Source of the DNA: Clostridia bacterium
GTDB lineage: Bacteria > Bacillota > Clostridia > TANB77 > CAG-465
NCBI GenBank assembly: GCA_051886195.1
Contig: JBJEXW010000003.1
Coordinates: forward strand, 99,448 to 163,447
Length of the DNA stretch: 64,000 bases
Direction: 5' to 3'
Position numbers: made by a program. This document shows, in pieces, positions 44,488-47,400 of this stretch. Position 1 is the stretch's first letter. Each line of letters starts with the position of its first letter.

Positions 44488-47400
44488 TAAAAAAATATAT
44501 ATATTAAATTTAAAGATAGAGAAACAAATCTCTATCTTTTTTTTGTATTATATGATATATATATAAATATAGAAAGGATTTTGTGATATTATGAAAGCTA
44601 AAGAATTAGATAATTACAGAGATAAAGATGGATATATAGATTATACTAGGTTTGAAGAGGAAAAAGGCAATAGTTTAGAAACCATTGATGAAGACAGAGG
44701 GTCTGGTTCAAGAGATAAAAAATGGGTTGTGTTTGAAGATACAAGAGTCATGTTAAGAAACGATCAATTTGAAAAAGATGGAAGTAAATATACTACCTAT
44801 CAAGAGCTTATATTTGAAGAATTAGCAAAACAGGTAAACTTTCCAACAGCACATTATGACTTGATTAAAAGAGATAATAAAAAGGGAGTAATAACATATA
44901 ATATAGTTGATGAAGATGAAAATAAAGGTCTTTCAATGTATTCACTGGGGGATATTATGTCAGAAGCGGGGTTTGAAGATCTTGATTTTGATTATAATAT
45001 AACAGATGCATATTCTGCAATTAAAAATTTTTGCAAAAATATGGAAATAGAAAAGGAACAATATTCAGAAACTATGGTAAATTTTACCAAAATGCAAGTA
45101 TTAGATTTGTTTTTAAGTTCTACGGATAGGCACCCTGGAAATATATCTTTTTTATATGGTGTAGATGAAAAGACTAAAAAGAGAGTATTTAAATTTGCTC
45201 CCCTTTATGATAATGAGCTTTCATGTGGTTCAGATTTAAGAGAAGAAGATATGGAAGAAAGTATAACAGATTTTAGAAAGGCAAAAACAAATTCAGAACT
45301 TCAAATCACTTGTGCATCTGTCCCAAGAGAAAAGATGCCTCCCGAATTGTTAAAAAGTAAAGATAATAATCCAAATTCACAGCTTTTAAAGTTTTGTATG
45401 GATATAGACGAAGAAGTAGAAGATTTTGCTGGAGATTGTATGGATAATTTAAATATTATTCAAGCAGTAAGAAATGTAGAAGACAGAATACAGGCTAAAA
45501 TACCAGAAAAATATGTAGAATTTTTACTTGCAAACTATAGTGAAAAGAAAAAAGAAATGAGTAGAATAATGGATGAATTTTACCAGATAATATAGGAGGA
45601 AAAAATATGAAAATAAGAGTATATTGGAAAGAAACACAATTTTTAGAAGTTGAAAAAGTGGATGAATATTATTTTTCAAAAATATTGCCAGAAAATTATT
45701 TAAAAGCAAAAGAAGATGGATGTCCAATTATTTTCTTAGATAAAGTAAAAATAGTAGATAATAAATTACCTAATATTATAAAAAATAGATTACCTAAAAC
45801 AGAATATTTATTAAAGAATGTAGATAAAGAAAGCGATATTGAATCTGGCATAATTGAATATATAAATAGAACTAAATGTAAAAGAGTAACAGATTATATT
45901 ACTTTAGATATAGAACAATAAAATTTATAATTAAACCTAACAAGCTACTCAAAAAGTTGACATAAGGGCAAAAAAATGTTATAATTAATAAGACACCTAG
46001 AATAGACGCTCCAAAATTAATATTAAAGGGGGTATATTAATGAAAAGAGTGCAATACATTAAGTGGAAAAATGAGATTGTAGGAATACTACAAACTAATG
46101 AAGAAGGTATAAAATATGTTCCAAATATGGATAATATAGAAAAATTAAAAAAAGAAGGAATACCTTATGTGTTAATTACAGAATCAAATGATGGAAGTGT
46201 ACCAAAGTTTATAGAAAATAGACTTAAACTTAATTCTAAAAAGGATTCTGTAACAGTGACAGATCATTTTTCCATAGTTCGTGCATAAATAAAGAAGACA
46301 ATAGTCTTCTTTATTTTTTTATCATTTATAATTTTTTTTGTATTATTTTATTTGTTTTTAACATCGCAAAATGTTACATAAAAAAAAGCACTTTTTCATT
46401 ACCTTAATTATTAAAAAGTGTGTTATATATAATTATGCGAGGTGATTAATTAATGAAAGAAAATATAGAAGATTACAAAAAAGATGGAATAATTAATTTA
46501 GATGAGTATTTTCTAAATAATCCATCAAATTTTACATATCCATATTATATTACTGGATATGATGAAAAAAATTTCTGGACAAGAGTTGGAAGGGAGGATA
46601 AAGAAAAATTTATATATGTTAAGCCAAGAGAAAGCAAGTATTTAGATAATGACTATAATATATATTCTGAGTTATTATATGAAGAACTTATGAAACAAGT
46701 TGGCATAAAATGTGTAGATTTTGACATTGCAAATTATGAAGGTAATCTAGCAACAATTTCAGATAATATGTTAGAAAATTATTCATATGATCAATTTATT
46801 GTAAGTGCTTCTGAGTTACTTGAAAGTAGAAAATATTCAAGTATAGGAAATGATTATGATATAGAAGATTTATTTGATACTATACATGAATATTGTATTG
46901 CAGAAAACTTGGACGAAAAAGTGGGAGAAAAGTGCATTGAAGATATACAAAAAGTATGTATTGCAGATGTATTTACTCTATCTACAAATAGGAAAGCTAC
47001 AGATTTAGATTTTATTGTTGGGTTAAATGATAATGGAGAAGAAAGTATTGAACTTGCTCCTTTATGCCATAATACATATTGCTTAGGTTCAAATTTTTCA
47101 AAAGATGAAGTATACGACATGTTAGAAAATGAAGATATGTTAGCAGATAGAGCTAATATTTGTTATTTCGATGCTGGAGTACCAGATTATAAAAGAGATT
47201 ATGATTATCCATATTGGGAAGATACACTATATTATCTAATTGATGAGAGTGAAGAGAATCTTGCTTTTGCAAAAAAATGTGCAGAAAAGATGAACATTGA
47301 TGAAGCAATAAAAAAAGTTGAAAAGAAAATACAAAATAAAATACCAAGTGAATACAAAGATTTTGCACGTATTATATGGGATAATAGATTACAAAATATT

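Follow-up and report, generated by a model that had tools for sequence, protein, structure and literature searches.

In a 64,000-nucleotide (nt) stretch of a Clostridia bacterium genome (assembly GCA_051886195.1, contig JBJEXW010000003.1, positions 99,448 to 163,447; hereafter the window), five genes on the same strand, K1, S1, S0, K2 and S2 in that order (44591-47783), make up a cassette that is probably a chromosomally fixed, split HipA-family kinase module with a HipT/HipS-like mechanism, resembling the hipJS modules named in a survey of Hip kinases and compared below. An earlier note on this DNA had described the first two genes as a HipT-sized core kinase followed by a HipS-sized protein, in reversed order and with no HipB, and this description was borne out by Pfam, PADLOC and AlphaFold2 (AF2) plus Foldseek analyses, as were the positions of both open reading frames (ORFs; Table 1), the 11-nt gap between them and the AGGAGG ribosome-binding site, which overlaps the K1 stop codon. 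The locus extends beyond S1 and position 45921, where the note had closed it, as S0, K2 and S2 also belong to it. The functional unit exceeds the K1-S1 pair: hidden Markov model (HMM) classification of every fetched locus identified K-S-S0 as the conserved core, with K2-S2 as a module added in about half of the loci, and the order of kinase followed by S protein was kept in all of them.

K1 is a HipA-family core kinase that does not have N-subdomain 1. The Pfam HipA_C check proposed in the note gave a significant match (PF07804; 31.9 bits, with the gathering cutoff at 30.5; E = 1.4e-7), and a precomputed PF07804 assignment was present on all 19 close K1 homologs. The best profile match of K1, far better than that to HipA_C, was to PADLOC PDC-M03A (E = 3.7e-20). 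At the sequence level, a phmmer search of PDB sequences with K1 returned no matches, and the K1-family profile returned noise only, with no HipA, HipT or HipS among its PDB hits. The AF2 model of K1 (predicted local distance difference test, pLDDT, 90.2; predicted template modelling score, pTM, 0.90) was searched against PDB structures with Foldseek and matched H. pylori CtkA best (E = 3e-8, template modelling score, TM, of ~0.7 on the target), followed by HipA of E. coli and Shewanella and then HipT of Legionella and E. coli, all with a probability of 1.00 and with E values for the CtkA, HipA and HipT matches ranging from 3e-8 to 1e-3. Target-normalised TM scores were lower for the 400-440-amino-acid (aa) HipA chains, which fits a K1 without N-subdomain 1.

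The motifs singled out in the note (STDRHPGNISF, APLYDNE and GSGSRDKKW, the last within RGSGSRDKKW) are all present in K1 and kept in K1-type orthologs; they hold the catalytic loop D179-R-H181-P-G-N184 (DxHxxN), the Mg-binding Y206-D207 and the Gly-rich loop R36-GSGSRDKK-W45, respectively. Both the catalytic loop and the Mg-binding Y-D207 were kept in every K1-type ortholog checked, and the Gly-rich loop was kept as R-G-[S/T/A]-x-x-[R/K]-x-K-x-W, with Ser/Thr, wherever the region was present (the K1 ORF of locus L021 is N-terminally truncated and falls outside this count). From these residues K1 is predicted to be catalytically competent. The sole low-confidence segment of the AF2 model comprises residues 37-39, and the low confidence there fits a mobile Gly-rich loop with a possible autophosphorylation Ser/Thr. 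A weak SMI1_KNR4/SUKH-1 signal was also seen in the C-terminal helical regions of both kinase paralogs, at 45370-45595 in K1 (residues ~260-334, E = 0.016) and at 47300-47430 in K2 (residues ~283-324, E = 0.0084); both matches were sub-threshold and were set aside as probably spurious.

S1 is predicted to adopt the fold of HipS and of HipA N-subdomain 1, a likeness that is real at the fold level only. The AF2 model of S1 (pLDDT 89.4) gave a Foldseek result in which the top 19 PDB matches were all HipS proteins or HipA N-domains, the best being 8ezr_A (probability 0.98, TM 0.53), with TM scores of 0.5-0.59 across the matches. Sequence searches were uniformly negative: S1 had no phmmer matches among PDB sequences, the S-family profile recovered no HipS or HipA chain from the PDB at E <= 10, 15 S-family members matched nothing relevant in Pfam (Couple_hipA, which the note had suggested as a check on S1, included), no PADLOC model matched S1, S0 or S2, and NCBIfam yielded sub-threshold noise only on the cassette proteins. 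When the S family was aligned by hhalign with the 12 HipA N-subdomains from Table S1 of Gerdes et al., the probability was 0.65%, and with the S0 family it was <1%. The claim that S1 represents the missing N-subdomain 1 thus holds for the fold, while the sequence motifs cited for it found no statistical support. With the S profile as query, HMMER was run exhaustively over 1.84 billion representative proteins and returned only 52 small orphan clusters (37-124 aa), none of them fused to a kinase or HIRAN domain. The split design thus occurs in Gram-positive gut anaerobes in a form whose small subunit escapes sequence searches, and HipS-like regulators are therefore probably under-counted. In the genomes S1 was always directly downstream of K1; in most loci the two genes overlap by up to 4 nt or lie no more than ~20 nt apart, and in L020 the gap is 125 nt. 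S1 is translationally coupled to K1, and within each of the pairs K1-S1 and K2-S2 the genes are closely coupled or overlap in the majority of loci (in the window the S2 start overlaps the K2 end by 10 nt).

The third small gene, S0, is a true paralog of S1 and S2: the S0 family and the S1/S2 family, aligned independently, matched each other by hhalign with a probability of 97.7% (E = 2.3e-12), and S0 is shortened by ~25 internal residues, equivalent to the helical segment at S1 residues ~64-90. S0 was found in nearly all related loci and was absent from the near-identical L004 and L013, which read K1-S1-K2-S2. An identical perfect-consensus promoter lies upstream of S0 in 13 of the 13 loci examined, down to ~30% protein identity, which argues that S0 is a conserved, separate and presumably strongly expressed unit; hairpins similar to the one trailing S0 in the window were present in most relatives. 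The S0 leader (45986-46039, ~55 nt) was compared between the window and loci L003, L007, L011, L012, L014, L017 and L019. AGACAC is kept just past the -10 box in several loci, and AATTAATATT is kept just ahead of the GGGGG ribosome-binding site of S0 in several other loci; these elements could be an operator or an RNA element, and the leader had no Rfam match. L014 (7336-8617) carries an insertion of ~1.04 kb that separates S1 from S0 and includes an additional ORF; the direct repeats at its ends, 66 nt (88% identical) and 34 nt (71% identical) long, are duplications of the S0 promoter region.

K2 is related to K1 by BLASTP (24% identity over 245 residues, E = 5e-22) and to PADLOC PDC-M03A (E = 7e-14), and it had no match to Pfam HipA_C. 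Its catalytic residues have been replaced in seven of seven orthologs: the Gly-rich loop by Y-x-x-x-N-F-W, the catalytic-loop His and Asn (LSTNRKATDLDF in the window copy) and the Mg-binding Asp by His (APLCHNT). The orthologs are mutually 52-73% identical. Judged by these substitutions, K2 is a conserved paralog of K1 that should be catalytically dead. S2 is 42% identical to S1 (E = 4e-25) and, by analogy with the K1-S1 pair, would bind K2 as the cognate partner of the pseudokinase. We found no earlier HipA-family pseudokinase with its own HipS-like partner in the literature. K2 is constrained more strongly than the active kinase K1.

The cassette has a narrow distribution and a fixed position. 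K1 had only 19 close relatives in an index of 5.8 billion proteins, and a scan of 185,579 species-representative genomes yielded 13 loci, all of them in gut-derived metagenome-assembled genomes labelled as uncultured Clostridia, Clostridiaceae or Clostridium sp. Wherever flanks were available the cassette was preceded by metG-lepB-holB-PSP1-fdx, with valS on its downstream side in 10 of the 13 genome loci. The slot was unchanged even with K at 32-36% identity and MetG at 69-79%, and this constancy across diverged loci indicates a vertically inherited cassette with no sign of mobility. No relatives of K1 were found by tblastn against phage and plasmid collections or by a pattern scan of IMG/VR, and a fold search of the viral BFVD collection returned weak generic kinase matches only. 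Loci L007-L009 and L011 form a sub-lineage with K-S-S0 only; downstream of the cassette, L007-L009 have LemA, DUF3137 and formate-tetrahydrofolate ligase in place of valS, indicating a rearranged 3' side. A toxin-like kinase fixed in one lineage between metG and valS bears on whether such a module is a selfish or defence element or a domesticated growth regulator.

All five cassette genes had a ratio of nonsynonymous to synonymous substitution rates (dN/dS) below 1 in every pair of genomes compared, with ranges of 0.11-0.56 for K1, 0.22-0.58 for S0, 0.06-0.32 for K2 and 0.09-0.59 for S2. In most pairs divergence was far quicker in K1, S1 and S0 than in K2, S2 or the genes at the flanks; between L012 and L019, for example, identity was 42% for K1, 75% for K2 and 88% for MetG. 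In the least-saturated pair, L004/L014, K2 and S2 were as constrained as MetG (dN/dS of 0.06, 0.09 and 0.07, respectively), compared with 0.21 for K1 and 0.20 for S1.

The HipA-family kinases are the classic toxins of persistence, and to our knowledge only in the split HipT/HipS design does a piece of the kinase itself act as the antitoxin. By analogy with that design, binding of K by S, its inhibition, the toxicity and target of the kinase and the roles of S0 and K2 can be sketched as follows, and the outline is likely. K1 would be an active HipT-like Ser/Thr toxin kinase from which the N-subdomain 1 of ~100 residues is missing. S1, co-translated with it, would dock at the N-subdomain-1/HipS site, control the flexible Gly-rich loop and keep K1 inactive. 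S0, made from its perfect-consensus promoter, would supply an abundant and separately controlled pool of a minimal inhibitory surface, and if S0 synthesis were lost, for instance because transcription was shut off, K1 would be released and would halt growth by phosphorylating an essential target. To judge from HipA and HipT, this would be a translation factor, for example an aminoacyl-tRNA synthetase. K2-S2 is a duplicated pair whose kinase is dead yet strongly conserved; its role would most likely be non-enzymatic, either as a scaffold or decoy or in regulating K1 or the S proteins.

Several observations weigh against a toxin-antitoxin module of this kind. There is no sequence-level homology between the S proteins and HipS or HipA-N, and the fold match of S1 is moderate (TM 0.5-0.6) and comes from a predicted model. 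S1 has no obvious equivalent of the Trp65 wedge of E. coli HipS; the stretch opposite Trp65 reads RLPKTE, in an alignment that is itself non-significant. Unlike typical mobile toxin-antitoxin systems, the cassette keeps a single chromosomal slot throughout the lineage, no copy turned up in the searched collections of phages, plasmids and viral contigs, and it is without a DNA-binding autoregulator.

A role in anti-phage abortive infection, which is compatible with the HipT/HipS-like reading and differs from it mainly in the trigger and the biological role, is possible but not especially likely. Here the cassette would be related to PDC-M03, a candidate defence system in which two genes encode a HipA-like kinase and a protein with a HIRAN domain (PMC13245101), the layout that Gerdes et al. 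call hipIN; S0 and/or a K2-S2 decoy would replace the HIRAN sensor, and infection would release K1. The matches of K1 and K2 to PDC-M03A point in this direction, as do a weak phage-family match (phrog_8728, E = 7.5e-15), the fast evolution of K1, S1 and S0 within conserved flanks (K1 at 42% where MetG is at 88%) and the proposal that hipJS derives from hipIN through loss of HIRAN and serves in abortive infection (PMC8262856). However, Pfam detected no HIRAN or other recognisable sensor domain, the locus is not in a defence island and has housekeeping genes on both sides, dN/dS is <1 throughout, and PDC-M03 is itself only a candidate system.

The main rival, which we judge unlikely, is that the cassette is not a toxin-antitoxin module at all and that K1 is a domesticated signalling kinase to which S1 contributes in trans as an obligate subunit, structural or activating, the cassette as a whole being a lineage-specific housekeeping regulator of translation or growth tuned by K2-S2 and S0. 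Vertical inheritance in the same fdx-valS slot in 10 of 13 loci while K falls to 32% identity, the lack of mobile-element, phage or plasmid copies among the collections searched and the MetG-like constraint on K2 and S2 would all be expected of such a regulator, and in HipA N-subdomain 1 belongs to the active enzyme (PMC10627512); the lack of an obvious Trp65-like wedge in the S proteins points the same way. Against it, evolution of K1, S1 and S0 is 2-5 times faster than that of the housekeeping genes on either side, an unusual pace in a core regulator; the characterised HipA-family kinases with a separate HipS are all toxins neutralised by HipS, and a consensus promoter over-producing a small partner (S0) fits antitoxin logic.

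No more probable than the domesticated kinase, and offered tentatively, is a domesticated, lineage-fixed kinase/pseudokinase network of active K1, dead K2 and three HipS-fold proteins, in which the shortened S0 with its consensus promoter would be the actual labile regulator and K2-S2, as decoy or scaffold, would set the threshold for activation; if true, no HipA-family system has been described with such a regulatory architecture, and the HipS family on which it is built is undetectable by sequence. A further reading, that the ORFs arose by chance or are pseudogenes in decay and that the HipA_C match is spurious, is refuted, for although the Pfam score exceeds its cutoff by only 1.4 bits and there are no sequence matches to the PDB, all five genes keep their order across more than 13 genomes with dN/dS <1, the AF2 models are confident with specific fold matches, and the PADLOC match has an E value of 3.7e-20.

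The boundaries of the cassette within the window, which has a G+C content of 28%, are given in Table 1. The gene directly upstream is that of a ferredoxin (fdx), in agreement with the housekeeping flank described in the note; the surface-protein gene, which the note had placed next to S1 on the other side, is not the downstream neighbour of S1, that position being held by S0. Hairpins equivalent to the one that ends the fdx unit were found upstream of K1 in relatives. The note had also given the pair its own promoter and terminator. The candidate K1 promoter is only a weak-to-moderate consensus match, and the hairpin analysis of the locus found no terminator after S1, hairpins following fdx, S0 and S2 instead. 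There were no K- or S-type copies elsewhere in the window beyond the five-gene cassette, and no helix-turn-helix (HTH) or other DNA-binding domain was matched in any of the five proteins (Pfam, NCBIfam).

Table 1. Genes and regulatory features of the cassette (window coordinates)
Feature	Position	Strand	Description
fdx-unit 3' hairpin	44512-44539	+	Intrinsic-terminator-like, 11-pair stem with a trailing T run; 5' limit of the cassette
K1	44591-45595	+	334-aa HipA-family core Ser/Thr kinase without N-subdomain 1
S1	45607-45921	+	104 aa, predicted HipS / HipA N-subdomain-1 fold; putative trans-acting lid or antitoxin
S0 promoter	45957-45985	+	Sigma-70, TTGACA-17-TATAAT with extended -10 TG, 12/12 consensus
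S0	46040-46288	+	82 aa, shortened HipS-like paralog, own transcription unit
S0 terminator-like hairpin	46287-46316	+	13-pair stem followed by a T run
K2	46453-47484	+	343-aa K1 paralog, predicted pseudokinase
S2	47475-47783	+	102-aa HipS-like S1 paralog
Hairpin between convergent S2 and minus-strand surface-protein gene	47790-47818		3' boundary of the cassette

On the 3' side, the minus-strand gene at 47824-48813 encodes a 329-aa protein with a signal-peptide-like N-terminus, a poly-Asn linker and no Pfam match; it is kept beside valS in relatives, and the orientation of the valS block varies among genomes. A T-box leader (51765-51999, minus strand, 132 bits) precedes valS, as in ordinary aminoacyl-tRNA synthetase regulation. 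On the 5' side, a plus-strand tyrosine recombinase gene (37374-38528; Phage_integrase, E = 1.7e-28) adjoins tRNA-Pro(tgg) (38929-39004, minus strand) ~6 kb upstream of the cassette, with six housekeeping genes between; two ORFs upstream of the integrase (35135-36136 and 36126-36740) had no Pfam match. The integrase region may be the end of an integrated element, and an integrase occupies the same relative position in the related locus L003.

Among structurally characterised proteins, K1 most resembles CtkA of H. pylori (JHP0940; PDB 3akj, 3akk and 3akl), a stand-alone HipA-like core Ser/Thr kinase that is likewise without N-subdomain 1, with 14-16% sequence identity to K1. CtkA has been described as a secreted proinflammatory kinase encoded in a plasticity zone, and we know of no HipS-like partner for it. 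The HipBST systems of E. coli O127:H6 and Legionella pneumophila divide HipA into a core kinase and a mimic of N-subdomain 1, as the models suggest for the cassette, and the HipT and HipS chains are direct fold matches of K1 and S1. In E. coli HipBST, HipS takes the place of N-subdomain 1 and blocks the Gly-rich loop, which is ejected and has Trp65 of HipS wedged against it (PMC10627512). HipBST and the K-S-S0 core are both three-protein systems, the third protein here being another HipS-like protein and not a HipB or HTH protein. The gene order differs (hipB-hipS-hipT there, kinase and then S here), the S proteins have neither sequence similarity to HipS nor an evident Trp65 equivalent, and a pseudokinase is not part of HipBST. 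With PDC-M03/hipIN the cassette shares the kinase that is the best sequence-profile match of both K1 and K2 and a partner encoded downstream of the kinase; in contrast to that partner, S1, S0 and S2 have no HIRAN match in Pfam and no PADLOC match.

In the survey of 1,239 Hip kinases by Gerdes, Baerentsen and Brodersen (mBio 2021; PMC8262856), main clade XI consists of short core kinases with downstream partners: hipIN, in which the kinase HipI has as its partner HipN, which is HipS-like plus HIRAN (14 modules), hipL, the fused form (14 modules), and hipJS, in which a short clade-XI kinase is followed by a HipS-like putative antitoxin with no HipB (2 of the 1,239 modules). None of the three had been tested experimentally as of that survey, and our literature search found no later follow-up on hipJS or HipJ. 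The K1-S1 pair fits the hipJS architecture, with a core kinase lacking N-subdomain 1 encoded first, a protein of ~100 aa predicted to have the HipS fold next and no HipB or other HTH protein, and K1 finds its best profile match in a sister, hipIN-type kinase (PDC-M03A). It differs in that K1 has 334 aa, compared with 279-321 aa quoted for the clade-XI short kinases, and in that the HipS of hipJS is recognisable by sequence, whereas the S proteins here are recognisable by fold only. Moreover, hipJS is bicistronic, whereas the cassette is a chromosomally fixed K-S-S0 unit, often with K2-S2, and so adds a promoter-bearing shortened HipS paralog and, in many loci, a pseudokinase with a third HipS paralog. 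These three natural HipS-fold paralogs, one of them shortened, would allow the parts of the N-subdomain needed for kinase binding and inhibition to be compared. The earlier note had regarded the layout as uncharacterised, which is correct insofar as hipJS carried no experimental test in the survey; the layout of kinase first, HipS-like protein second and no HipB is nonetheless already catalogued as hipJS, and it is the five-gene expansion that is new.

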